Shown here one piece after another: positions 7,376 through 63,845 of a stretch of DNA of 64,000 nucleotides (position 1 is the stretch's first letter; each line of letters opens with the position of its first letter). Position numbers and translations under genes: made by a program. The notes below the pieces were generated by a model. It saw only the letters and a list, made by a program, of their open reading frames with translations, did not search any database and had not been told where the DNA came from. The stretch is from Pecten maximus (lineage: Eukaryota): contig NC_047022.1 in assembly GCF_902652985.1 (NCBI RefSeq), positions 22,754,001 to 22,818,000 of the forward strand. The letters run 5' to 3'.

Positions 7376-8305
7376 TATGGTTACCTGTGGTAAATGGAAC
7401 AGTATGGTTACCTGTGGTAAATGGAACAGTATGGTTACCCGTGGTAAATGGAACAGTATGGTTACCTGTGGTAAATGGAACAGTATGGTTACCTGTGGTA
7501 AATGGAACAGTATGGTTACCTGTGGTAAATGGAACAGTATGGTTACCCGTGGTAAATGGAACAGTATGGTTACCTGTGGTAAATGGAACAGTATGGTTAC
7601 CTGTGGTAAATGGAACAGTATGGTTACCCGTTGTAAATTGAACAGTATGGTTACCTGTGGTAAATGGAACAGTATGGTTACCTGTGGTAAATGGAACAGT
7701 ATGGTTACCTGTGGTAAATGGAACAGTATGGTTACCCGTGGTAAATGGAACAGTATGGTTACCTGTGGTAAATGGAACAGTATGGTTACCTGTGGTAAAT
7801 GGAACAGTATGGTTACCCGTGGTAAATGGAACAGTATGGTTACCTGTGGTAAATGGAACAGTATGGTTACCTGTGGTAAATGGAACAGTATGGTTACCCG
7901 TGGTAAATGGAACAGTATGGTTACCTGTGGTAAATGGAACAGTATGGTTACCCGTTGTAAATGGAACAGTATGGTTACCTGTGGTAAATGGAACAGTATG
8001 GTTACCCGTGGTAAATGGAACAGTATGGTTACCCGTGGTAAATGGAACAGTATGGTTACCTGTGGTAAATGGAACAGTATGGTTACCCGTGGTAAATGGA
8101 ACAGTATGGTTACCCGTGGTAAATGAAACAGTTTGGTTACCCGTGGTAAATGGAACAGTATGGTTACCTGAGGTAAATGGAACAGTATGGTTACCCGTGG
8201 TAAATGGAACAGTATGGTTACCCGTGGTAAATGGAACAGTATGGTTACCCGTTGTAAATTGAACAGTATGGTTACCCGTGGTAAATGGAACAGTATGGCT
8301 ACCTG
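7376..8305. repeat. 27-bp minisatellite, ~34 copies
   Basis: Unit TATGGTTACCYGTGGTAAATGGAACAG with internal dyad TTACC-N3-GGTAA; produces spurious MVTCGKWNS and WLPVVNGTV ORFs. Confidence 0.95.
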
Positions 8306-9538: not shown

Positions 9539-12101
9539 CTAGTATCTGCCACCTGTAGAAGAAAGGGTATCACCGTTATATATAAACAACGTATTTTCAT
9601 GTTCATAAATGCAACAAGCCCGATATACGAATGAAAAGTGCTGTGAAGCACTTGTAAATATTATTTTTGTTACATTTTTAATGCTTTCAAATTCATGTAA
9701 AGACAACATATCATAAACTCTTTTACGCCATCCGGATATTTGATTATATATGGTAAACTAAACCAATTTCCAAGGGTAATAACTCTGAAAATGAATATTG
9801 ATCATTATCGAAAGAGGCATCGTGCATACTAAGTAAATAAACTGTTATCAAATCACTATACCTTGAAGAGGTTTCGCACTTATGATACTGCACATATGAC
9901 AGTAATTGCAAATCGATATTTTACGTTCAACATAAGATCTGCCTATACAGAAAAGATGATAATTTCGAGGTACATTCTAATTGTGCATAAAAGAGCACTT
10001 GTCATATTGCTACCCGCGTATAAACATATAATACATTGCAATGAAATACAGTGGAAAAATAACTTACCCATTCCTCCGCCCATGCCTCCTTTTCCGCCCA
10101 TCATACCGCCCATGCCTCCCATACCAGGCATACCGCCCATACCTCCTCCCATGCCTCCTTTACCGCCCATCATACCGCCCATGCCGCCCATTCCTCCTTT
10201 TCCTCCCATCATACCGCCCATACCGCCCATTCCCATACCAGGCATACCGCCCATACCTCCTCCCATGCCTCCTTTACCGCCCATCATACCGCCCATACCG
10301 CCCATTCCCATACCAGGCATACCGCCCATTCCCATACCGCCCATTCCTTTTCCGCCCATACCGCCCATTCCCATACCGCCCATTCCTTTTCCGCCCATAC
10401 CTGGCATACCGCCCATTCCCATACCGCCCATTCCTTTTCCGCCCATTCCCATACCAGACATACCGCCCATTCCCATACCTTTTCCGCCCATTCCCATACC
10501 AGGCATACCGCCCATTCCCATACCGCCCATTCCTTTTCCGCCCATTCCCATACCAGGCATACCGCCCATACCCATACCGCCCATTCCTTTTCCGCCCATG
10601 CCGCCCATTCCCATACCAGGCATACCGCCCATTCCCATACCGCCCATTCCTTTTCCGCCCATACCGCCCATTCCCATACCGCCCATTCCCATACCAGGCA
10701 TACCGCCCATTCCACCCATTCCTCCGCCCATTCCTCCATAGGCAGCTGAAAGTAACAAATTAATAGATACAATAAAAAAAAAGAGTTGCATTTTCACATT
10801 TCATTTGGGCATTATAAACTTACCAAGAACCTACCTAACCATGAATTTATCTCTACATTTTGGTCTCCGCCAATAATTTTCGGGATTTATACTAAAACGG
10901 AATAGGGGATAGGGGATATGACGCCAACAGAACACTGACTATGGCTGAGACGAAACCTAACGATTGTTGGTGGTAAACCAGTCACTAAATAAATAACTAA
11001 TATATCATACAACGAATGAGTCAATACACCAATGTTTACACACCCTTTTCTGATAATTTGATTCGATAGTTACTCTTAATCAAATAGGGTTTGTGATTTT
11101 CAACTTTTATTTAATTGCCAATGGCTACTTACCGCGCTTGTAACCTGGAAATAAAAGGAAAAGTATCAGCCAACGTGCTTTAACGTTACAATCTATCTTC
11201 ATCTAGAAGGTAATGTCATGTTACACAATGGAATGATTGCATATGAATATAACAATTATCAAATATATTCATTTTGCTTTAACACTTTCCCCATTAACGT
11301 TATATGATTCAATGAAGTTTCTATTCTTATGCTGATAGTTTAGACCGATTTGTGCATTTGTGTTAACCAACATGTTGTAAAACAGATTACACCTTGATTT
11401 TATCTCATTATGTGACGTACGTACGTTTTTCGAAAATCTTTTAATTTTTATTGAGCGGACCGCAATACTCTACTGGAAAAATTATCTGCATACATGTATA
11501 TGGAATTGATACTTACGTCCACCGTTGTTCATTCCATTGCCATTGTTCATTCCGTAACCATTGTTCATTCCGTAACCATTGTTCATTCCATAACCATTGT
11601 TCATTCCATATCCTAATATCAATTGAAAATATATTTTAACAAATATTGTATACACATTTCGTATGTTATGCTTAATATTTTAGCAGTAAAATGATGTAAA
11701 TTGTATTGAACTTAAAAAAACAAAAACAATTGTACATCGAGGTATTTTATAGATTCCTTGGTAACTATTGGCGGGGCTTGTTCATTATAATTGATATGTT
11801 TATTATATTGACTCTTTTTATTTATTATGATAGATTTCTATATACATTCTTTATCGAATCAGTTCTAAAGATATTTTAACCGTGTTTATAGAAACCCGAA
11901 ACCTTTTTCATACTTCTTTCATTTCAGTGATATAAAAATGGACATGACGGACTGAAGATGCATTGAAACCAGTACAGGGAGCATCAGACCAACCAAAAAG
12001 ACATACCATGATACATACTATCAACCATATCTAATCCACTTACCAGCAGCGTTGGCAGCGACAACAATGGCGGACGCCATGCATACGAACAGAAAAGTCA
12101 T
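9539..12101 (-). CDS. Gene A: secreted Gly/Met-rich abductin-like precursor, 285 aa, 5 coding exons
   Basis: Coding exons 12101-12044 (signal MTFLFVCMASAIVVAANAA), 11612-11517 (GYGMNN repeats), 11144-11133 (microexon, RYKR), 10745-10068 (GGMGMGGMPGM/GGKGM repeats), 9552-9539 (GGRY stop). All introns GT-AG and phase 1; 858 nt in total; AATAAA at 9489-9484; non-coding exon 1 ends at donor 13942. Confidence 0.88.
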
Positions 12102-13079
12102 CTTGAAGGTCTACGAGATAAAAAAAATCATATTTCAATTTGATTTGGGAACATCAATATGCAATATATATGGTAAAAATGTAAAAATAATAATTAAACA
12201 CTACAAACATTACGTATATGTATCTACGAAAGAAATCCGTATCTCAGCAAAACTGCATAGATAATTCAGATAATTATATTGATAAGACCATGATAGCAAT
12301 TGGATCAGTATCATTTCGACTCTTCTAATCACTCCATATATTATTGAACCGGTCTCTTCCCAAATGTACATTTCATAATAATACTTGTAGGTAGATAGTA
12401 AAGTTTGAAGAATGTTTCGTGTTGAAAACTGTAATCTCTTACTTCTAAACATTAGGTTTTTTTAAAAAGAGATTTGAATAGAAATGGATCCGGTATAAAA
12501 TAGGAATATCTTCACGCCGTACACTGGCAAATATAACATTTTGATACATGTCAGCTTGATTTTTTTGAATGAATTCAGTACCACTCAGGAAACATGATAT
12601 AAAGCAATGCATTTGATAAATATTATATCGAGTTATGAAAATATCTTGCAGTGCTATTTCTGTACCGTCAAGCGTGAATGAAAAAAACAGCCTCTATGAT
12701 ATATTGAAAACAGAAAATCATATAAAACTATGCATTCTAGAATATCAACACTAGCTGCCGAATGGCTTTTGTTGTTTGTTTTACATTTCCACAATACAGT
12801 ATTTGCTCTGAAGTCAAAGTTATCAACTAAAATTACTAAAAATCAATTAGAGCAGGACATGGCCATATGAACGATTTCCACCTGGAAAATTAAGGTTTCC
12901 GTGATCAATCATAGCGCTATGTTAATTTCAAATCAAGAGGGAAATTTCCGAACGGTTTCGCCTGACGAGACTTGTAACTATAAGCCCGTTTGGTAGACAC
13001 GATTAAAATGCATCACTAGCCGAAAGGTGGTGATAAAGAAAATATAACTTTCTGTTTGGCTTTTACTACATAATTTTAC

Positions 13080-13710: not shown

Positions 13711-13941
13711 TTTCCTAGATATGTTCCATATCAGTATTAACGTTTAAAACGTGCATTCAGCTCCGTAATTATTTGAAATGTGACTATTAATGCTAATGAG
13801 GATCTAATAAAAAAAACATCCTTATTTACCATTATAGAGGACTTCATATGAAAACTGATATAATATATTTCCCGACAGATAGAAAAGTGTAAATAGAATG
13901 CTCTAAAGATAGATATTGACGATCTGAGACACAGGACTTAC

Positions 13942-14054
13942 CTTAGAGTGATGAGCTGAGGGGCTGCTGCTGGGCTGTTGGTCGGCTGTGGGGATGTATG
14001 GCACAATTTGGGGAGGAACCCCAGAGTCTTATATACATTTTCTTACGGAAATCT
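13942..14054 (-). promoter_or_regulatory. Gene A core promoter and non-coding exon 1
   Basis: Minus strand AGATTTCCGT-AAGAAAA-TGTATATAAG (14054-14028), C-rich exon, donor AAG|GTAAGT at 13942/13941. Confidence 0.75.
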
Positions 14055-19477: not shown

Positions 19478-22400
19478 CGATATAAAGTCAGGTGCTTGTT
19501 GATATCTATTTCCTTATGCGATATGGAGTCAGATGTTTGTTTATATCTATTTCCTGATGTGATATAAAGTCAGATGTTTGTTGATATCTATTTCCTTATG
19601 CGATATAAAGTCAGATGTTTGTTGATATTCTATTTCCTTATGTGATATAAAGTTAAATACTTGTTGATATCCTATTTCCTTATGCGATATAAAGTCAGAT
19701 GCTTGTTGATATTCTATTCCTTATGTGATATAAAGTCAGATGTTTGTTGATATCCTATTTCCTTATGTGATGTTAAGTCAGATGTTTGTTGACATTCTAT
19801 TTCCTTGTAAGATATAAAGTCAGATGTTTGTTGATATTTATTTCCTTATGTGATATAAAGTCAGATGTTTGTTGATATCTATTTCCTTATGTGATATTAA
19901 GTCAGATGTTTGTTGATATCTATTTCCTTATGTGATATGAAGTTATATGCTTGTTGATATCTATTTCCTTATGTGATATGAAGTCAGATACTTGTTGATA
20001 TCTATTTCCTTATGCGATATAAAGTCAGATGTTTGTTTATATTCTATTTCCTTATGCGATATAAAGTCAGGTGCTTGTTGATATCTATTTCCTTATGTGA
20101 TATAAAGTCAGGTGCTTGTTGATATCTATTTCCTTATGTGATATAAAGTCAGATGTTTGTTGATATCTATTTCCTTATGCGATATGAAGTCAGATGTTTG
20201 TTGATATTCTATTACCTTATGTGATATAAAGTCAGATGTTTGTTGATATCTATTTCCTTATGTGATATAAAGTAAGATGTTTGTTGATATTCTATTTCCT
20301 TATGCGATATAAAGTCAGATGTTTGTTGACATTCTATTTACTTATGTGATATAAAGTCAGATGTTTGTTGACATTCTATTTCCTTATGCGATATAAAGTC
20401 AGATGTTTGTTGACATTCTATTTCCTTATGTGATATAAAGTCAGATGTTTGTTGATATCTATTTCCTTATGCGATATAAAGTCAGATGTTTGTTGACATT
20501 CTATTTCCTTATGCGATATAAAGTCAGATGTTTGTTGATATCTATTTCCTTATGCGATATAAAGTCAGGTGCTTGTTGATATCTATTTCCTTATGTGATA
20601 TAAAGTCAGATGTTTGTTGATATCTATTTCCTTATGCGATATGAAGTCAGATGTTTGTTGATATTCTATTACCTTATGCGATATGAAGTGAGATACTTGT
20701 TGATATCTATTTCCTTATGTGATATAAAGTCAGATGTTTGTTGATATCTATTTCCTTATGCGATATAAAGTCAGATGTTTGTTGACATTCTATTTCCTTA
20801 TGCGATATAAAGTCAGATGTTTGTTGATATCTATTTCCTTATGCGATATAAAGTCAGGTGCTTGTTGATATCTATTTCCTTATGTGATATAAAGTCAGAT
20901 GTTTGTTGATATCTATTTCCTTATGCGATATGAAGTCAGATGTTTGTTGATATTCTATTACCTTATGTGATATAAAGTCAGATGTTTGTTGATATCTATT
21001 TCCTTATGTGATATAAAGTAAGCTGTTTGTTGATATTCTATTTCCTTATGCGATATAAAGTCAGATGTTTGTTGACATTCTATTTACTTATGTGATATAA
21101 AGTCAGATGTTTGTTGATATCTATTTCCTTATGCGATATGAAGTCAGATGTTTGTTGATATCTATTTCCTTATGTGATATAAAGTCAGATGTTTGTTGAT
21201 ATCTATTTCCTTATGCGATATAAAGTCAGATGTTTGTTGACATTCTATTTCCTTATGCGATATAAAGTCAGATGTTTGTTGATATCTATTTCCTTATGCG
21301 ATATAAAGTCAGATGTTTGTTGATATTCTATTTCCTTATGTGATATAAAGTTAAATACTTGTTGATATCCTATTTCCTTATGCGATATAAAGTCAGATGC
21401 TTGTTGATATTCTATTTCCTTATGTGATATAAAGTCAGATGTTTGTTGATATCCTATTTCCTTATGTGATATTAAGTCAGATGTTTGTTGACATTCTATT
21501 TCCTTGTAAGATATAAAGTCAGATGTTTGTTGATATTTATTTCCTTATGTGATATAAAGTCAGATGTTTGTTGATATCTATTTCCTTATGTGATATAAAG
21601 TCAGATGTTTGTTGATATCTATTTCCTTATGTGATATTAAGTCAGATGTTTGTTGACATTCTATTTACTTATGAGATATAAAGTCAGATGCTTGTTGACA
21701 TTCTATTTCCTTATGTGATATGAAGTCAGATGTTTGTTGATATCTATTTCCTTATGCGATATAAAGTCAGATGTTTGTTGATATTCTATTTCCTTATGTG
21801 ATATAAAGTTAAATACTTGTTGATATCCTATTTCCTTATGCGATATAAAGTCAGATGCTTGTTGATATTCTATTCCTTATGTGATATAAAGTCAGATGTT
21901 TGTTGATATCCTATTTCCTTATGTGATGTTAAGTCAGATGTTTGTTGACATTCTATTTCCTTGTAAGATATAAAGTCAGATGTTTGTTGATATTTATTTC
22001 CTTATGTGATATAAAGTCAGATGTTTGTTGATATCTATTTCCTTATGTGATATTAAGTCAGATGTTTGTTGACATTCTATTTACTTATGAGATATAAAGT
22101 AAGATGTTTGTTGATATTCTATTTCCTTATGTGATATAAAGTCAGATGTTTGTTGATATTCTATTTACTTATGAGATATGAAGTAAGATGTTTGTTGATA
22201 TCTATTTACTTATGAGATATAAAGTCAGATGCTTGTTGACATTCTATTTCCTTATGTGATATGAAGTCAGATGTTTGTTGATATCTATTTCCTTGTAAGA
22301 TATAAAGTCAGATGTTTGTTGATATTCTATTTCCTTATGCGATATAAAGCCAGGTGCTTGTTGATATTCTATTTCCTTATGTGATATGAAATCATATGTT

Positions 22401-22820
22401 TGTTTATATATATTTACTTATGTGATATAAAGTCATATGTTTGTTGATATCTATTTCCTTATACGATATAAAGTCAGATGCTTGTTGATATCTATTTCCT
22501 TATGCGATATGAAGTCAGATGTTTGTTGATATCTATTTCCTTATGCGATATGAAGTCAGATGTTTGTTGATATCTATTTCCTTATGCGATATGAAGTCAG
22601 ATGTTTGTTGATATCTATTTCCTTATGTGATATAAAGTCAGATGTTTGTTGATATCTATTTCCTTATGCGATATAAAGTCAGATGTTTGTTGATATCTAT
22701 TTCATTATGTGATATAAAGTCAGATGTTTGTTGATATCTATTTACTTATGCGATATGAAGTTAAATACTTGTTTATATCTATTTCCTTATGCGATATAAA
22801 GTCAGATGTTTGTTGATATG
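19478..22820. repeat. 41/42-bp satellite array, ~80 copies
   Basis: Unit GATATAAAGTCAGATGTTTGTTGATATCTATTTCCTTATGY; begins ~240 bp downstream of the gene B polyA signal. Confidence 0.96.
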
Positions 22821-23113: not shown

Positions 23114-24601
23114 TTAGTATCCTGAAACATAATGGTTGTACATGGATTAGTAATTAGAAATACTATACACATAAACGTCAGAACTATCCCTAGATATTTG
23201 AGATAAAGAAATACTAATTGTAGACAGCCCTTATCAATACATGAGGTTGAGGAAGCCCAATGTTTTATGCATTCGGTAGCTAGGTAAAGTATATCAAAAT
23301 GTAATGTTGTATTCGAAATACTTCACGATTTCTTTTAATATGATAAATACTTGAGTGATATCGAAGTCTTGCCAGCATGCAATTTTGCTACATATATCTA
23401 TTTTTAATGTGGAATGAACTTTTCAAAGATGTAGGGATAACTGCTTCTTGAATGCATGCTTAGTGAAATATGTACACGAAAATTTTAACTCTTTGTGAAA
23501 TAAGACCATATATAAAAATGACATATTTACCTTTTCCTCCAAATCCACCTTGGCCGCCCATTCCTCCGCCCATTCCTCCGCCCATTCCTCCAAAACCTCC
23601 ATTACCACCGCCCATTCCTCCGAAGCCACCTTTTCCACCGCCCATTCCTCCGAAGCCACCCTGGCCTCCCATTCCACCGCCGTTCATTCCACCGCCGTTC
23701 ATTCCTCCGCCGTTCATTCCTCCGAATCCTCCTTGGCCTCCCATTCCACCTCCCATTCCTCCGAAGCCACCTTTTCCTCCTCCCATTCCTCCGAAGCCAC
23801 CCTGGCCTCCCATTCCGCCGCCCATTCCTCCGAATCCACCCATTCCTCCGAATCCACCTTTACCCCCGCCCATTCCTCCGCCCATACCTCCGGCTCCGCC
23901 TCCGTTCATTCCTCCGCCCATACCTCCGGCTCCGCCTCCGTTCATTCCTCCTCCCATTCCAGTACCGCCCATACTTCCGGCACCGCCTCCATACCCTGTG
24001 AAATACAGATAAACAGATGTATTAATCAATAGATGTTACATATTAATTATGATACTTTTTAATGATGTGGCGTAAGTGGTATGGTCAATGCTTTACATCA
24101 GAACAGATTGATTTTTCATATTCATATTGCTTTAGCACAAGAAACATCTTTATTTGAAAACATTTACGACCAACTTTGTTTGCAAGAGTTTTTCTTGTGT
24201 TATATGTCCAACTACGTTCCCATAGCAGTGCAAATTCCTTTTCGACAAGGGATCGAGGGATATTACTAGTCAGACTCGATTACATGCCCTAGTGCCATTT
24301 CTCTCCGCTAGGCTGCGCTGATGAAGATAAATATCAGATCGCAGCCAAGCGGAAAGTAGAAACACCTCGACTGACTACCCAGTATATGTTACAAGTTTGT
24401 ACTTCCATATTGAATTCGTATATATAGAGCTTCGCGTCATACCTATGCTTAATTTAAGAAAGAAGAAAGAAACGGATTCATCACGACTGTTCAGGACATA
24501 TATGTTCAGGACAGTACAGTTTAGGACACAGATGTTTAGGACAAACCTGCAGCACTGACGGCGGCAACAAGACAAACGGCAAGACAGATGTAGGTGTTCA
24601 T
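23114..24601 (-). CDS. Gene B: canonical abductin (scallop hinge-ligament elastomer), 175 aa, 3 coding exons
   Basis: Exons 24601-24547 (MNTYICLAVCLVAAVSAA), 23995-23531 (GYGGGAGSMGGTGMGGGMN...GGFGGMGGG repeats...GGQGGFGGK), 23121-23114 (GY stop); 528 nt; ATTAAA at 23062-23057. Matches my recollection of Argopecten abductin (MNAYICLAACLIAAVSAAGYGGGAGSMGGTGG...GGQGGFGGKGY). Confidence 0.93.
24268..24377. mobile_element. Small palindromic MITE-like insert in intron 2 of gene B
   Basis: Ends TAGTCAGACTCGA / TCGACTGACTA with an internal GC-rich hairpin TCCGCT-A-GGCTGCG-CTGAT...ATCAG-AT-CGCAGCC-A-AGCGGA. Confidence 0.5.
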
Positions 24602-25500: not shown

Positions 25501-26494
25501 GGTCACCACAAATATGTAAGAGAAACACATCATCGATTGATAACATAATTTACATCCTTTTAAAATCGTCGCATTTTGTTTTAACTTCTTTAATGTCGAC
25601 ATTGGAATCTGTTAAGATGTCTATATTACATGTTAACTGCACGTGTAAACACAGCACGTACCTGAGAATGTGCACTGCGCTTTGAAGATGTCGATTGCAT
25701 TGGCTTGTTTTCTGTACGTGCTAGTTTAGTGTTATCGAGGATAAACACAATGTAGGGCTGACTTTGAATTCACAGTGTTAAAGAATAAAGGAGGCACGTG
25801 TTTTGCAAATTTTAAAGTGATTATTTTTAGGTTGTTGATTTTTGTTGTTGTTGTTGTCGTAAAAGTTCAATAATACGTTCAATTTTTTGTATTATTTTAG
25901 TATTTTTCATTTCTTTACACTTATAATATACTCCAGGGACGGATAGCATTTTGTTACTATTCTCAACTTAGATCTTTTCATTGCAAGACATCATTTTGAT
26001 ATTTAAATTCAATTTATGCATGGTTATCTATTAGTTTCCAAACTATCCAAAACACTACTCTCAAATTTACTATTATGTCTAAAAGAATATTTTTTGTTTA
26101 TTAAAAACAACAAAGATTACAGACATAACAATGGAACCATAATTCGTGGATAAGGCTATATAATCAGGGGATATACTTAATTTCAAATAATTTTCGTCCG
26201 TGTGTCTTCTGCTTGGGACACATTGAAAGACAATAGTTCTCGAAAGCCTGTTAAATAATGTACATGTAGTTGAATCGGTGATATAGAATTTGTATTTATA
26301 AAAATTACCCAAGTTTCAATTCAGTTGTATTTTACGTAAAACCTATTTCTGATATAAAAAAAACTTCAGATCTATCGAATTGTTTTAATTTGGAATAACA
26401 TTTACAAGTTATTGTATAAAAGATATTTTAAAAGTATGACTCTTGTGATATAGTTGAAGAAACGTGACTCGGTATTATAATAGGTTTAGTAGGG

Positions 26495-28172
26495 GTAGAG
26501 TCGTAGGTAAAGTAGTAGGTAAAGTAGTAGATAAAGTATTAGGTAAAGCAGTAGGTAAAGTAGCAGATAAAGTAGAAGATAAAATGGTAGGTAAAGTATT
26601 AGGTAAAGTAGTAGGTAAAATAATAGGTAAAGTAGAGGTAGAGTAGTAGGTAAAGTAGTAGGTAAAGTAAAGGTAACTTAGTAGGTAAAGTAGTAGGTAA
26701 AGTAATAGGTAAAGTAGAGGTAGAGTAGTAGGTAATGTAGCAGGTAAAGTAGTAGGTAAAGTAGAAGTAAAGTAGTAGGTAAATATGGTAGGTAAAGTAG
26801 AGGTAAAAGTAGTAGGTAGAGTAGTAGGTAAAGTAGTAGGTAAAGTAGTAGGTAAAGTAGAGGTAAAGTAGTAGGTAAAGTAGAGGTAAAGTAGTAGGTA
26901 AAGTAGAGGTAAAGTAGAGGTAAAGTAGAGGTAAAGTAGTAGGTAAAGTAGAGGTAGAGTAGTAGGTAAAGTAGTAGGTAAAGTAGTAGGTAAAGTAGAA
27001 GTAAAGTAGTAGGTAAAGTAGTAGGTAAAGTAGTAGGTAAAGTAGTAGGTAAATAATAGGTAAAGTAGTAGGTAAAGTAGTAGGTAAAATAATAGGTAAA
27101 GTAGTAGGTAAAATAATAGGTAAAGTAGTAGGTAAAGTAGTAGGTAAAGTAGTAGGTAAAGTAAAGGTAACTTAGTAGGTAAAGTAGTAGGTAAAGTAAT
27201 AGGTAAAGTAGAGGTAGAGTAGTAGGTAATGTAGCAGGTAAAGTAGTAGGTAAAGTAGTAGGTAAAGTAAAGGTAACTTAGTAGGTAAAGTAGTAGGTAA
27301 AGTAATAGGTAAAGTAGAGGTAGAGTAGTAGGTAATGTAGCAGGTAAAGTAGTAGGTAAAGTAGAAGTAAAGTAGTAGGTAAAGTGGTAGGTAAAGTAGA
27401 GGTAAAGTAGTAGGTAAAGTAATAGGTAAAGTAGAGGTAGAGTAGTAGGTAATGTAGCAGGTAAAGTAGTAGGTAAAGTAGAAGTAAATTAGTAGGTAAA
27501 GTAGAGGTAAAGTAGCAGGTAAAGTAGTAGGTAAAGTAGAGGTAAAGTAGAGGTAAAGTAGTAGGTAAAGTAATAGGTAAAGTAGAGGTAGAGTAGTAGG
27601 TAATGTAGTAGGTAAAGTAGTAGGTAAAGTAGAAGTAAAGTAGTAGGTAAAGTAGAGGTAAAGTAGCAGGTAAAGTAGTAGGTAAAGTAGTAGGTAAAGT
27701 AGTAGGTAAAGTAGTAGGTTAAGTAGTAGGTAAAGTAGTAGAGGTAAAGTAGTAGGTAAAGTAGTAGGTAAAGTAGAGGTAAAGTAGAGGTAAAGTAGTA
27801 GGTAAAGAAGAAGGTAAAGTAGTAGAGGTAAATTAGAAGATAAAGTAGTAGGTAAAGTAGAAGTAAAGTAGTAGGTAAAGTAGAGGTAAAGTAGCAGGTA
27901 AAGTAGTAGGTAAAGTAGTAGGTAAAGTAGTAGGTAAAGTAGTAGGTTAAGTAGCAGGTAAAGTAGTAGAGGTAAATTAGAAGATAAAGTAGTAGGTAAA
28001 GTAGAGGTAAAGTAGAGATAAAGTAGTAGGTAAAGTAGAGTTAAAGTAGTAATTAAGTAGTAGGTAGAGTAGTAGGTAAAGTAGTAGGTAAAGTAGTAGG
28101 TAAAGTAGTAGGTAAAGTAGTAGGTAAAGTAGTAGGTAAAGTAGAGTTAAAGTAGTAATTAAGTAGTAGGTA
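26495..28172. repeat. 1.7-kb AGTAGTAGGTAA (12-mer) / AGTAGAGGTAA (11-mer) simple-repeat array
   Basis: Direct reading; the plus strand has almost no C; lies between the divergent promoters of B and C. Confidence 0.96.
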
Positions 28173-30587: not shown

Positions 30588-32455
30588 ATGAACACCTACA
30601 TCTGTCTGGCTTCATGCCTTTTGGTGGCCGTAAGCGCTGCAGGTAAATCGTGCAATACAGCAAACCGAACCTAATATCATCTTTTTAACATTATTTGAAA
30701 CATATTCTTATATCAATGAATTACTAGTAACTCACTTTGAAGAATTCATGGATTATCTTTAAGACTTAGCGATTGTAAATGTCAATGCACAAATATTTTT
30801 GACAGTACAAATAACATATATGACTGTGTTGCTCGAACTGTACGGCGGAGAGTTCTCATCTAGAATTGGCTATGTACCCATGTATACTATACTTATCTGT
30901 AAGTTTACCAACACTCCGTATCCTGAGCTGATTGTCAAAACGGAAGTGATTTTGGGATCTTTTGTTTTTCTCGGGTTTGTGGTTAAGAATTATGTACAGA
31001 CATTATGTATACCTACATGACATATAAGTTTATTGTACCTGTGTAATCTAATACGTGTATCTTTGACAGGTTATGGAAGTGGATCCGGAAATGGATTTGG
31101 TAATGGCGGCGGAAATGGATTCGGAAACGGAAACGGTTACGGAAACGGCAATGGCGCCGGAAATGGAGGATCTGGATTTGGACGTGAGTGTGAATTGAAT
31201 AGATTGCAGAAGTGAATAATATGTTTTGTGAAGAATAACATATCGTAAGATCGATAAACTAGTATATATATTTAAAGATATGTTTATGTTAGTGAATGCT
31301 TCAGCCGATATTATAAGTAACAGAATTTGCATATCACACTTGAAGCTACCTGGGTATCTAACAAGATGTATGGTATCTATATTATATTATATTTATTGTA
31401 TTAATATATATTAATCTATATTTTGTTTATGAGAATTTAGATTTACCCTGATCGGATTGAATTTTGAAGTTGAATTGAAGTTTAAAACAAGTTTTTTGTA
31501 CAAATTATCAAAAAATATCAACGCTAATTTTGTTCTTTTATTTCAGGATATAGAAGAGCAGGTGGGTATCAACGATTTTCATGTCGTTTGTTTCCTTTTG
31601 TCGATTGAAATTAGGTTTTCCCTATATGTAATTATAGATATGATATCATTATGTGTCAAAATCAAGAACCTTCTGATCGAAGTTTGTACTTAGAATTAAC
31701 AAATGACTCCACTGAAATGAAGGTTATAGTAGCATATTACTGTTGAAACTATTGTTCAATGATACATACGATATCAGCTCATTTATCTACTATCAATATA
31801 AATGTTTACCCTAGGATACGGAGGTGGTGCCGGAAGTATGGGCGGAGGATTTGGTGGCTCTGGAATGGGAGGAAAAGGTGGATTCGGAGGAATGAACGGC
31901 GGCGGATTCGGAGGAATGAACGGCGGTGGAATGGGAGGAATAAACGGCGGTGGAATGGGAGGAATGAACGGCGGTGGAATGGGAGGAATGAACGGCGGTG
32001 GAATGGGAGGCAAAGGAGGATTCGGAGGGATGAACGGCGGTGGATTCGGAGGAATGAACGGAGGCGGATTCGGAGGAATGAACGGCGGTGGAATGGGAAG
32101 CAAAGGAGGATTCGGAGGAATGAACGGCGGTGGATTCGGAGGAATGAACGGAGGCGGATTCGGAGGAATGGGCGGTGGAATGGGAGGTGGAATGGGCGGT
32201 GGAAAAGGTAGTTACATAATTGTCGGTTTTTTATTATCCACGTTTGGCGTTTCTACCGGTTCTATTATATGAAATAGTTATGATATTATTTAATTATACT
32301 ATTTTTAATAATACTTCGATATTATATTATTCATGATGATCAATTGCAGCTTTACGTGCTTTGATTATTTTGTAAATGATAAAACGCACATATTATACTT
32401 GACTTGTGTATTGAATTCTAACCAGGTATGCCTTGTTTTACTTCCAGGATATTAG
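30588..32455 (+). CDS. Gene C: pro-abductin-like precursor, 194 aa, 5 coding exons
   Basis: Exons 30588-30642 (MNTYICLASCLLVAVSAA), 31070-31183 (Gly-Asn peptide), 31547-31561 (RYRRA microexon), 31815-32207 (GYGGGAGSMGGGFGG...GGFGGMNGGG...GGK), 32448-32455 (GY stop); 585 nt; all introns phase 1 GT-AG; AATAAA 32505-32510. Confidence 0.9.
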
Positions 32456-41840: not shown

Positions 41841-43650
41841 ATGAACACCTACATCTGTCTGGCTTCATGCCTTTTGGTGGCCGTAAGCGCTGCAGGTAAA
41901 TCGTGCAATACAGAAAACCGAACCTAATATCAATCTTTTTAACATTATTTGAAACATATTCTTATATCAATGTATTACTAGTAACTCACTTTGAAGAATT
42001 CATGAATTATCATTAAGACTTAGCGATTGTAAATGTCAATGCACAAATATTTTTGACAGTACAAATAACATATATGACTGTGTTGCTCGAACTGTACGGC
42101 GGAGAGTTCTCATCTAGAATTGGCTATGGACCCATGTATACTATACTATACTTATCTGTAAGTTTACCAATACTCCGTATCATGAGCTGATTGTGAAAAC
42201 GGAAGTGATTTTGGGATCTTTTGTTTTTCTCGGGTTTGTGGTTAAGAATTATCTACAGATATTATGTATACCTACATGACATATAAGTTTATTGTACATG
42301 TGTAATCTAATACGTGTATCTTTGACAGGTTATGGAAGTGGATCCGGAAATGGATTTGGTAATGGCGGCGGAAATGGATTCGGAAACGGAAACGGTTACG
42401 GAAACGGTAATGGCGCCGGAAATGGAGGATTTGGATTTGGACGTGAGTGTGAATTGAATAGATTGCAGAAGTGAATAATATGTTTTGTGAATAATAACAT
42501 ATCGTAAGATTGATAAACTAGTATATATATTTAAAGATATGTTTATGTTAGTGAATGCTTCAGCCGATATTATAAGTAACATAATTTGCATATCACACTT
42601 GAAGCTACTTGGGTATCTAACAAGACATTTCCTTGACATTTTTAAGGGTTTTTGAGATTAATCTATATTTGGTTTTTGAGAATTTAGATTTACCCTGATC
42701 GGATTGAATTTTGAAGTTGAATTGAAGTTTAAAAAAAAGGTTTTGGTGCAAATTATCAAAAAATATCAACGCTAATTTTGTTCTTTTATTTCAGGATATA
42801 GAAGAGCAGGTGGGTATCAACGATTTTCATGTCGTTTGTTTCCTTTTGTCGATTGAAATGAGTTTTTCCCTATATGTAATTATAGATATGATATTATTAT
42901 GTGTCAAAATCAAGAACCTTCTGATCGAAGTGTGTACTTAGAATTAACAAATGACTCCACTGAAATGAAGGTTATAGTAGTATATTACTGTTGAAACTAT
43001 TGTTCAATGATACATACGATATCAGCTCATTTATCTACTATCAATATAAATGTTTACCCTAGGATACGGAGGTGGTGCCGGAAGTATGGGCGGAGGATTT
43101 GGTGGCTCTGGAATGGGAGGAAAAGGTGGATTCGGAGGAATGAACGGCGGTGGATTCGGAGGAATGAACGGCGGTGGAATGGGAGGAATGAACGGCGGTG
43201 GAATGGGAGGCAAAGGAGGATTCGGAGGAATGAACGGCGGTGGATTCGGAGGAATGAACGGAGGCGGATTCGGAGGAATGAACGGCGGTGGAATGGGAGG
43301 CAAAGGAGGATTCGGAGGAATGAACGGCGGTGGATTCGGAGGAATGAACGGAGGCGGATTCGGAGGAATGAACGGCGGTGGAATGGGAGGTGGAATGGGC
43401 GGTGGAAAAGGTAGTTACATAATTGTCGGTTTTTTTATTATCCACGTTGGGCGTTTCTCCCGGTTCTATTATGAAATAGTTGTGATATTATTTAATTATA
43501 CTATTTTTAATAATACTTCGATATTATATTATTCATGATGATCAATTATCGTGCTTTGAACATTTTGTAAATGATAAAACGCACATATTATATTTGACTT
43601 GTGTATTGAATTCTAACCAGGTATGCCTTGTTTTACTTCCAGGATATTAG
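41841..43650 (+). CDS. Gene D: pro-abductin-like precursor, 179 aa
   Basis: Exons 41841-41895, 42329-42442, 42795-42809, 43063-43410, 43643-43650; 540 nt, intact frame and splice sites. Confidence 0.9.
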
Positions 43651-52331: not shown

Positions 52332-54190
52332 ATGAACACCTACATCTGTCTGGCTTCATGCCTTTTGGTGGCCGTGAGCGCTGCAGGTAAATCGTGCAAT
52401 ACAGCAAACCGAACCTAATATCAATCTTTTTAACATTATTTGAAACATATTCTTATATCAATGTATTACTAGTAACTCACTTTGAAGAATTCATGAATTA
52501 TCATTAAGACTTAGCGATTGTAAATGTCAATGCACAAATATTTTTGACAGTACAAATAACATATATGACTGTGTTGCTCGAACTGTACGGCGGAGAGTTC
52601 TCATCTAGAATTGGCTATGGACCCATGTATACTATACTATACTTATCTGTAAGTTTACCAATACTCCGTATCATGAGCTGATTGTGAAAACGGAAGTGAT
52701 TTTGGGATCTTTTGTTTTTCTCGGGTTTGTGGTTAAGAATTATCTACAGATATTATGTATACCTACATGACATATCAGTTTATTGTACATGTGTAATCTA
52801 ATACGTGTATCTTTGACAGGTTATGGAAGTGGATCCGGAAATGGATTTGGTAATGGCGGCGGAAATGGATTCGGAAACGGAAACGGTTACGGAAACGGCA
52901 ATGGCGCCGGAAATGGAGGATTTGGATTTGGACGTGAGTGTGAATTGAATAGATTGCAGAAGTGAATAATATGTTTTGTGAAGAATAACATATCGTAAGA
53001 TCGATAAACTAGTATATATATTTAAAGATATGTTTATGTTAGTGAATGCTTCAGCCGATATTATAAGTAACAGAATTTGCATATCACACTTGAAGCTACC
53101 TGGGTATCTAACAAGATTTATGGTATATATATTATATTATATTTATTATATTAATATATATTAATCTATATTTTGTTTATGAGAATTTAGATTTACTCTG
53201 ATCGGATTGAATTTTGAAGTTGAATTGAAGTTTAAAAAAAGTTTTTGGTGCAAATTATCAAAAAATATCAACGCTAATTTTGTTCTTTTATTTCAGGATA
53301 TAGAAGAGCAGGTGGGTATCAACGATTTTCATGTCGTTTGTTTCCTTTTGTCGATTGAAATTAGTTTTTCCCTATATGTAATTATAGATATGATATTATT
53401 ATGTGTCAAAATCAAGAACCTTCTGATCGAAGTGTGTACTTAGAATTAACAAATGACTCCACTGAAATGAAGGTTATAGTAGTATATTACTGTTGAAACT
53501 ATTGTTCAATGATACATACGATATCAGCTCATTTATCTACTATCAATATAAATGTTTACCCTAGGATACGGAGGTGGTGCCGGAAGTATGGGCGGAGGAT
53601 TTGGTGGCTCTGGAATGGGAGGAAAAGGTGGATTCGGAGGAATGAACGGCGGAGGAATGAACGGCGGTGGATTCGGAGGAATGAACGGCGGTGGAATGGG
53701 AGGAATGAACGGCGGTGGAATGGGAGGAATGAACGGCGGTGGAATGGGAGGCAAAGGAGGATTCGGAGGAATGAACGGCGGAGGATTCGGAGGAATGAAC
53801 GGAGGCGGATTCGGAGGAATGAACGGCGGTGGAATGGGAGGCAAAGGAGGATTCGGAGGAATGAACGGCGGTGGATTCGGAGGAATGAACGGAGGCGGAT
53901 TCGGAGGAATGAACGGCGGTGGAATGGGAGGTGGAATGGGCGGTGGAAAAGGTAGTTACATAATTGTCGGTTTTTTATTATCCACGTTGGGCGTTTCTCC
54001 CGGTTCTATTATGAAATAGTTGTGATATGATTTAATTATACTATTTTTAATAATACTTCGATATTATATTATTCCTGATGATAAATTATCGTGCTTTGAA
54101 CATTTTGTAAATGATAAAACGCACTTATTATATTTGACTTGTGTATTGAATTCTAACCAGGTATGCCTTGTTTTGCTTCCAGGATATTAG
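52332..54190 (+). CDS. Gene E: pro-abductin-like precursor, 192 aa
   Basis: Exons 52332-52386, 52820-52933, 53297-53311, 53565-53951, 54183-54190; 579 nt, intact. Confidence 0.9.
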
Positions 54191-62389: not shown

Positions 62390-63845
62390 ATGAACACCTA
62401 CATCTCTGTGTGTCTGGCTTCATGCCTTTTGGTGGCCGTGAGCGCTGCAGGTAAAATACTGAAACCTTTCCTAAAATAAAGATTTTATTTCATTTGTAAC
62501 ACACGTTTAATGACCTAATGAACATAATCTTGTATGTATTTACTCGTATTGACTTCATATTTCTGATTATGCAACTGTAAAATATTAACACTGATGCATG
62601 ATTGCAACTTTGTCCTTGAATATAACGATTCAAATGTTTAAGGACACCATTACCTGACCGATGAGCGAAATTTTCTTTTTCTTTTCTACCTTTATTAATG
62701 AGAAAATCTGATGTCATTTACTTAAAACACAATTTATCGTTTTAGTTTGAAGGTTTGTTCGAAATTAATATATATCTGGAAATATCAGGATATTTCCGAT
62801 CAGTAAATCATTCTGGACATTCTCAATATTCCCATGGCGATGGTATCCCATACTTGATGTACATGACATATTCAATTAAAGAATAACCTTAGTTAAGGAA
62901 CTTTTGTTAAACTCTGTAAAGAATATCGAAATTATATAAACATATCTTATATATCAATTTTAACTGAAATTTTATTACCAACGTGTCACTCAATACCTGT
63001 ATAACTGATAGGTTATGGAAGTGGATCCGGAAACGGATTTGGTAATGGCGGCGGAAATGGATATGGAAACGGTTACGGAAATGGCAATGGCGCCGGAAAT
63101 GGTGGATCTGGATTTGGACGTGAGTACTGTATAGTTACTATAATTAATTCCGAAAGTGTATTTTAGTGGGCGTTTCAACGAATACTATCGGTACACAAGG
63201 TTTCATCCTCCTGATACTTTCTATGGAATTTTAAATATATTCTTTATTTATAATTTGTCCTCGCTTTACTGATTTAGAGTTTGATGTTAAATCTATCGGT
63301 TTTTGATTATGTATATTAAAAATATTTCTCTTGCTGTTTTATTTTAGGGTATAGAAGAGCAGGAGGAGGTGGGTACTAAAACTTCTCCATACTGATTGAT
63401 TTCTTTTGTCAATAGAAATGTTTTTCTTTATTTCGGATTAAACAACATATAAATAAGATTTATATTAATCAACTATATTCCGGTAGAAACGTGTAATTCG
63501 AAATAATCTATATCTTGATTTTCAATATAAAATGACTTGTTTGGTATATCAATTCTGAAATATGTTTTAACCTAGGATACGAAGGTGGTGCAGGAAGTAT
63601 GGGCGGAGGTTTTAGTGGCTCAGGAATGGGAGGCAAAGGTGGATTTGGAGGCATGAACGGAGGTGGATTCGGAGGAATGAACGGAGGCGGATTCGGAGGA
63701 ATGAACGGCGGTGGAATGGGAGGCAAAGGTGGATTCGGAGGCATGAACGGAGGTGGATTTGGAGGCATGAACGGAGGTGGATTTGGAGGAATGAACGGAG
63801 GTGGATTTGGAGGAATGAACGGAGGTGGAATGGGAGGTGGAAAAG
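62390..63845 (+). CDS. Gene F: pro-abductin-like precursor, 3'-partial (last exon expected beyond the window)
   Basis: Exons 62390-62450 (MNTYISVCLASCLLVAVSAA), 63012-63119 (Gly-Asn peptide), 63348-63368 (RYRRAGG microexon), 63576-63845 (GYEGGAGSMGGGFSG...GGK); introns do not align with those of C-E. Confidence 0.87.

Follow-up and report, generated by a model that had tools for sequence, protein, structure and literature searches.

What becomes of the extra, Asn- and Gly-rich exon that some abductin-like genes of the scallop Pecten maximus carry between the signal peptide and the rubber-like chain? The exon was noticed in a 64,000-nucleotide stretch of DNA (the window; assembly GCF_902652985.1, contig NC_047022.1, positions 22,754,001 to 22,818,000), and a preliminary description had proposed that it encodes a peptide which, once released by furin, serves as a second functional product, either a Tyr-rich cross-linker or a mineralisation modulator, rather than being a discarded propeptide. 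We analysed the exon, its neighbours and its paralogs; all spliced products, for every gene, are models built from genomic sequence. The first of these genes, gene A, has an open reading frame of 285 residues and a TATA box near 14035, and is laid out in window coordinates as follows:

13942..14010, minus strand: untranslated exon 1 (start approximate; TATATAA, then donor AG/GTAAGT at 13941)
12044..12110, minus strand: exon 2, with the start codon at 12101, the signal peptide and a phase-1 donor
11517..11612, minus strand: exon 3, the Asn/Gly/Tyr/Met module
11133..11144, minus strand: 12-nt micro-exon, which completes R-Y-K-R, a predicted furin site, and gives the module its terminal Tyr
10068..10745, minus strand: main Gly/Met exon, 678 nt
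9539..9552, minus strand: last coding exon, GGRY-stop

Exon 3 of gene A (96 nt, read on the minus strand from 11612 to 11517) lies between an AG acceptor and a GTAAGT donor. The repeat first read from it is confirmed: an 18-nt unit present five times, translated as GYGMNN four times and then GNGMNNGG. It encodes four Tyr and six Asn-Gly pairs, and its final base opens the P4 Arg codon of the predicted cleavage site. The mature main chain is 58% Gly and 31% Met, with 11 Lys, no Asn, 3.5% Pro and no Phe. Downstream of the gene, a 27-bp minisatellite of 34 copies (window 7376-8305) is open on both strands (VVNGTVWLP and NHTVPFTTG units) and is probably non-coding.

Gene A belongs to a tandem cluster of 11 abductin-like genes (A-G and I-L), 10 of them intact and six (A-F) inside the window. 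Sequence reaching 100 kb beyond either end of the window was examined: the cluster extends downstream, and in the upstream 100 kb no Gly-rich gene of the abductin-like kind was seen. The extra module is present in six of the 11 genes (A and C-G) and absent from the other five. Beyond the window end, positions are given relative to the window:

23114..24601, minus strand: gene B, a classical three-coding-exon abductin without module (exons 24601-24547, 23995-23531 and 23121-23114)
30588..32455, plus strand: gene C (signal exon 30588-30642, Asn-Gly exon 31070-31183, RYRR micro-exon 31547-31561, main exon 31815-32207, last exon 32448-32455)
41841..43650, plus strand: gene D (Asn-Gly exon 42329-42442, micro-exon 42795-42809, main exon 43063-43410)
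52332..54190, plus strand: gene E (Asn-Gly exon 52820-52933, micro-exon 53297-53311, main exon 53565-53951)
62390..63845, plus strand: gene F (Asn-Gly exon 63012-63119, micro-exon 63348-63368, main exon 63576-63845; last exon 86 nt beyond the window end)
79139-80706, plus strand: gene G, also of the two-module type, with RYRR as its site and AGA as the P4 Arg codon
90058-90356, plus strand: orphan H, an exon 3 and micro-exon for which no signal or main exon was found
87509-85879, 99884-98521 and 112398-110737, minus strand: genes I, J and K, Gly/Ser/Phe-rich, Met-poor paralogs
122611-119932, minus strand: gene L, a Gly/Met abductin of 319 residues whose GGGPFGGM repeats contain Pro, and which lacks the extra module

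Genes I, J and K start with AGKY and end with GAKY, and J is frameshifted, in reality or by assembly error. Genome-wide, a signal-exon pattern gave at least 8 matches, all in the cluster, against 1 for its control; a C-type exon 3 recovered only C-G (at least five of seven candidates), and gene A exon 3 recovered itself only, likewise a lower bound. The micro-exon pattern was too loose for such a search (1475 matches genome-wide against 1134 for the control). None of 23 RNA runs was listed as containing gene A, and four of the 23, examined over gene C, covered no exon; neither result has a bearing on expression. Several features of the surroundings were recorded along the way. Genes C, D and E sit in tandem segments of ~10.5-11.2 kb that are 91-97% identical (window 29180-61600), some of which could be recent duplicates or assembly haplotypes; tandem arrays flank gene B (41 bp x81 at 19479-22819, 12 bp x142 at 26494-28172); and a transposase-like stretch, mariner-like by eye only, lies just upstream of orphan H. 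Farther downstream, 144191-146480 (plus strand) encodes a predicted secreted protein of 582 residues (35% Met, 28% Gly, 12% Pro) that lacks a terminal Tyr, has an RGKR site four residues from its C-terminus and may be an LMP-like Met-rich ligament protein, and at ~159990-161980 (plus strand) a multi-exon secreted Gly/Met-rich gene enters an assembly gap of 100 N.

That these genes encode abductins is indicated by comparison with the abductin of Argopecten irradians, reportedly described by Cao, Wang and Bayley in 1997. One review gives scallop abductin a signal peptide with Tyr4, Cys6, Cys10 and Tyr20 (PMC13052691), and all four residues are common to the Argopecten protein and genes B-E. A 2-residue insertion lengthens the signal peptides of F and G, one Cys and Tyr21 are retained in A, and I-L keep Cys6, with Cys10 in L alone of these. 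The main chains of B-G (61-66% Gly, 11-22 Met, 8-9 Phe) resemble the Argopecten chain as the reviews present it, with its GGFGGMGGG-type Gly/Met/Phe repeats, ~60% Gly, high Met, little Pro and a Tyr near each end. The two Tyr near the ends are proposed, unvalidated dityrosine cross-link sites of abductin, Lys-Met links being likewise proposed, according to a review that calls it the sole natural rubber-like protein with compressive elasticity, its cross-links unknown (PMC9999432). All 10 intact main chains in the cluster follow the same rule: each has exactly two Tyr, one within the first five residues and one at the very end. By the sequence features tested, B-G are thus abductins, and A and I-L compositional variants. 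Protein searches for a deposited abductin returned none, low complexity defeating HMMER scoring; word-index searches each gave a single unrelated match; a full phmmer scan gave 18 matches at E<=0.001, with no abductin among the 7 examined; the ESM Atlas offered nothing usable, or 0.85 matches to bacterial hypotheticals; a metagenome pattern scan yielded 14 loci, none an abductin signal exon; a Pfam scan of 5 exons had nothing over the cut-off, and Pfam and PDB sequence searches gave compositional noise only. What sets the Pecten family apart is its organisation: the Argopecten protein, in the reviews, is a signal peptide and one 116-residue chain, whereas 6 of 11 Pecten paralogs insert an Asn-rich second module with a furin-type site, within an 11-gene cluster that includes Gly/Ser-rich and Met/Pro-rich variants.

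In all six module genes the insert is an Asn/Gly exon followed by a micro-exon of 12-21 nt, which together encode a module of 35-41 residues ending in R-Y-K/R-R. The Asn-Gly pairs number as described beforehand, eight in a 114-nt exon in each of C, D and E and seven in a 108-nt exon in F, and in these four genes an RYRR micro-exon follows. Coding introns are all phase 1, in an architecture identical across the six genes, and each exon 3 has a consensus donor (GTAAGT or GTGAGT). The P4 Arg codon spans the junction of exon 3 and micro-exon and is variously CGT, CGA, CGG or AGA, and the resulting R-X-K/R-R is the sole dibasic pair in the window's five two-module precursors and in the translation of G. 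The residues after the predicted cut are small (RYKR-AA in A, RYRR-AG in C-G), so that A and C-G look like putative convertase substrates: R-X-K/R-R in a secreted chain, expected to be disordered, with small residues behind it.

At a furin consensus, a furin-type cut is followed by removal of the two basic residues. With a signal-peptide cut placed just before Ala-Gly-Tyr, as we infer from small residues at -3 and -1, the predicted trimmed peptides have 35 (A), 41 (C-E) or 39 (F, G) residues and a mass of ~3.5-3.7 kDa, close to the ~35-40 residues first suggested; the 19-residue abductin signal given in a review means that the module may start 1-2 residues later. After this predicted trimming all six modules begin with AGY and end in Tyr, just as the preliminary description had it for the released peptide. 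Its further claim, that the peptide ends like mature A, holds for A itself, where both end in GGRY; the modules of C-G end in FGRY and their main chains in GKGY. The start agrees more widely: cut at the predicted furin site, the main chains of C-E and G would begin with AGY, as that of gene B would after signal peptidase alone. With 3-5 Tyr each, the modules are the cluster's only chains with more than two; they have no Lys, no Asp or Glu in five of six (one in G) and a net charge of ~+1, and those of C-F are also free of internal Arg. The genome encodes candidate enzymes for both steps, with 7 matches to proprotein-convertase P domains and 44 exon matches to M14 carboxypeptidase domains.

With Tyr at either end, as in the rubber protein, the module is likely not waste but a second structural component of the hinge. 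The explanation we favour, to which we give about an even chance, is that the module would be released as a Tyr-capped 'mini-abductin' and cross-linked into the hinge ligament as a second chain. Exon 3 and the micro-exon would be included in the mRNA; signal peptidase would cut ahead of Ala-Gly-Tyr; a furin-type enzyme, acting in the secretory pathway of the epithelium that forms the ligament, would cut at the single R-X-K/R-R, yielding two chains; and a basic carboxypeptidase would strip Lys-Arg or Arg-Arg, leaving a Tyr-ended peptide. The short peptide and the Gly/Met chain would be co-secreted 1:1 and laid down together, the short one being tied in by oxidative Tyr cross-linking. Between long two-Tyr chains, the module would then provide short strands or junctions of 3-5 Tyr. 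Splitting of a bivalve matrix precursor by furin is known: Pif-177 of Pinctada, a mantle matrix precursor with one R-X-K/R-R site, is cut at RMKR/RIKR into two shell products, Pif-97 and Pif-80 (PMC3091754). The Pif products are large, unrelated nacre domains, whereas the predicted Pecten products are both of low complexity and have matching ends. The two-module abductin is new relative to the reviews, which describe one chain type; neither it nor abductin together with furin was found in the literature searched, in which subscription journals are thinly represented, and genome annotations may list the genes.

The same exon structure admits a reading without cleavage. Skipping exon 3, or the micro-exon, or both preserves the reading frame, and A and C-G could therefore yield four isoforms: classical abductin, the cleavable two-module form, an uncleavable fusion and a site without its P4 Arg. 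The precursor might thus stay uncut, or its phase-1 exons be alternatively spliced, the module acting in some isoforms as an attached, Tyr-rich cross-linking head. Both exons being phase 1-1, singly or jointly removable, the exon 3 acceptors having just 11-12 pyrimidines in 20, and the uncut chain being the better brancher all speak for such an arrangement. We nevertheless consider it unlikely, because R-X-K/R-R is intact in all six genes and in orphan H, under four different P4 codons, and because the main-exon acceptors are equally weak (9-15 in 20) and the exon 3 donors consensus in six of six.

Whether the module could be a neutral spacer left over from duplication was examined from its substitutions. 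The preliminary description had called for dN/dS on exon 3 across species; no orthologue was recovered from other species, so paralogs C-G took their place, gene A having no orthologue to compare. Among C-G, exon 3 has accumulated 8 synonymous changes on 26 sites and 6 replacements on 79 sites (pN/pS 0.24, binomial p=0.009), or 0.29 (p=0.025) for C, F and G only; with transition bias set between 1 and 5, pN/pS is 0.25-0.32 and p=0.01-0.03, C versus D introns pointing to a bias near 0.9. The base of the test is 14 changes in about three independent lineages, and gene conversion limited to the exon is possible. Between C, F and G the identity of exon 3 is 88-96%, while all seven intron pairs from these three genes score inside the range of 100 shuffles. 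Replacements in C-G occur neither at Asn nor at the first, middle or terminal Tyr, and two of them are Phe/Tyr swaps at internal aromatic positions. Orphan H, whose intron is 82% identical to that of G, has Gly-to-Glu, Gly-to-Ala and Asn-to-Ile changes and a deletion; the Gly-to-Glu, the Asn-to-Ile and the deletion are absent from intact copies. Exon 3 in C-G is under purifying selection. Low complexity and dispensability in five of 11 paralogs would suit a neutral spacer, but constraint on the exon beside saturated, unalignable introns, together with damage in H that intact copies lack, largely refutes it, and we regard it as extremely improbable. The neutrality which, together with a peptide undetectable in tissue, was to bring down the idea of a functional peptide was therefore not found.

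A more serious competitor is a functional propeptide, a module that acts only while attached and is then cut by furin and degraded, having served in granule packing, in coacervation or in keeping the N-terminal Tyr of the main chain covered until it is secreted. The module has the classic placement between signal peptide and mature chain, and the predicted cut restores a gene-B-type N-terminus. Its constraint (0.24) resembles that of the signal exon, which is itself discarded (0.26), and is weaker than that of the main exon (0.07 over the first 30 codons); the Phe/Tyr interchange at two internal positions would suit a sticker, and five of 11 paralogs manage without. A discarded piece, however, need not mimic both ends of the mature chain, nor keep Tyr at position 3 and at P3 in six of six genes when the middles of A and C-G differ. 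A solubilising prodomain is moreover expected to be acidic, and these modules have 0-1 acidic residues. We hold this alternative possible, though doubtful. A second product and a propeptide active ahead of its removal cannot be told apart by purifying selection. The proposal of a second functional product therefore stands in part: the unique site, the matching AGY and Tyr ends and the selection together speak against a neutral spacer that is thrown away and favour a second Tyr-bearing product over the other readings, while the selection taken by itself fits a working propeptide equally well.

The module is probably a duplicated cassette of Gly-rich exon and short Tyr-stop exon in which the stop has turned into Lys or Arg; the resemblance of micro-exons to terminal exons (TAC AAG versus TAC TAG in gene A) suggests as much. 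The nucleotide homology of exon 3 itself is weak: against main exons, the best alignment lies at the start of the exon and matches in 14 of 21, a score reached by 1-3 of ~120 in-frame windows, and whole-exon comparisons are mostly no better than shuffles. A duplication origin is therefore argued from architecture. The module may have been gained once in the cluster, or twice, in A and in C-G. Exon 3 of A scores marginally above codon shuffles against C, F and G (3, 10 and 33 of 500, respectively), and the signal-exon tree has support <=50 at the nodes bearing on one versus two origins.

The other role first proposed, mineralisation, depends on Asn-Gly. Modules differ from main chains in Asn content, and their Asn-Gly density is 17-20 per 100 residues, against 0-8 in main chains. 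In gene A the mature products divide completely, all 11 Asn lying in the module (no Lys) and all 11 Lys in the main chain (no Asn); a deamidated A peptide would, speculatively, be opposite in charge to its partner chain. The pairing with Gly is shared, however: Gly follows 44 of the 49 Asn in modules and 64 of the 65 Asn in main chains, the main chains of C-G having 7-11 Asn-Gly apiece. Other non-Gly residues are commonly followed by Gly too (53 of 68 in modules, 478 of 626 in main chains), so Asn-Gly is a by-product of Gly-rich sequence, and as a signal specific to the peptide it was rejected, being a family-wide trait. Asn-Gly rearranges within hours to days, according to one study (PMC11659308), which means that both chains of C-G, and the chain of gene B, would acidify with age.

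A released peptide that deamidates at Asn-Gly and then controls or inhibits CaCO3 in the ligament, in the manner of the nacrein repeat or of LICP, the ligament intracrystalline peptide, can draw on that speed, on the density in the modules, on the precedent of LICP and on a computed pI that falls from ~8.5 to ~4 if every module Asn-Gly deamidates. Against it, the scallop resilium core is largely uncalcified. N66 carries a Gly-Asn repeat, and the modules, like the stretch in nacrein/N66, are of low complexity, rich in Gly and Asn and part of a secreted matrix protein of a mollusc. The nacrein repeat is Gly-X-Asn, X being Asp, Asn or Glu, and lies within carbonic anhydrase (PMC4066178); there it encodes its acids and stays unreleased. 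The Pecten modules, in contrast, have no enzyme domain, 0-1 acids, evenly spaced aromatics and a cleavage site, and the gene A unit Gly-Met-Asn-Asn contains no acidic residue. Membership in the nacrein/N66 group was rejected, the gene models having no carbonic anhydrase domain and the repeat no encoded Asp or Glu. LICP is likewise a short, Tyr-ended peptide of the bivalve hinge ligament, an aragonite-steering peptide of pearl oyster; it has 10 residues, is acidic by sequence, starts with pyroglutamate and acts on aragonite fibres (PMC13080008); it has no sequence similarity to the Pecten modules. With the main chains equally rich in Asn before Gly and bound to acidify too, the nacrein-like mineral modulator of the preliminary description is not supported, and we judge such a function distinctly unlikely.

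A bioactive role, as a Gly-rich antimicrobial peptide or an RY-ended signal, is very improbable. The peptide would be short, secreted, Gly-rich and predicted to be freed by a convertase, but its net charge is ~+1 without Lys and it matched no family. Amidation to an RYamide requires a Gly donor between RY and the dibasic site. With Lys-Arg or Arg-Arg directly after Tyr in all six genes, amidation would not occur, and an RYamide-type neuropeptide was rejected.

Returning to the cross-linked second chain, we estimated what such peptides could add to a network. Pairwise links on two-ended chains alone cannot gel; peptides with 3-5 Tyr would lower the gel point: in an ideal Flory-Stockmayer estimate, p_c is 0.32-0.62 for cut chains plus peptides and 0.17-0.25 for the uncut precursor. 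As the uncut precursor gels earlier, branching needs no cut, and the cut must serve otherwise, for example by exposing termini. Under assumed concentrations, reaching a 4 MPa modulus takes strands of ~11-27 residues. Tyr links by themselves could not give strands as short as that, so links through Lys or Met are probably the more important ones, and the modules have no Lys. Tyr can also form trimers (PMC3291537), which would make branching possible without the peptide. We put forward only tentatively a self-supplying, end-linked rubber network, in which two-Tyr chains would meet furin-released junction peptides of 3-5 Tyr in 1:1 ratio, an arrangement perhaps gained twice (A, C-G).

The cluster offers 11 gene models, a strict rule of two terminal Tyr, and six precursors with a Tyr-richer second module. 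Exact peptide masses and N-termini are predicted, which makes the abductin cross-link question directly testable, and a two-component recipe is suggested for recombinant abductin materials. If the self-supplying network is real, abductin would have a dedicated cross-linker peptide.
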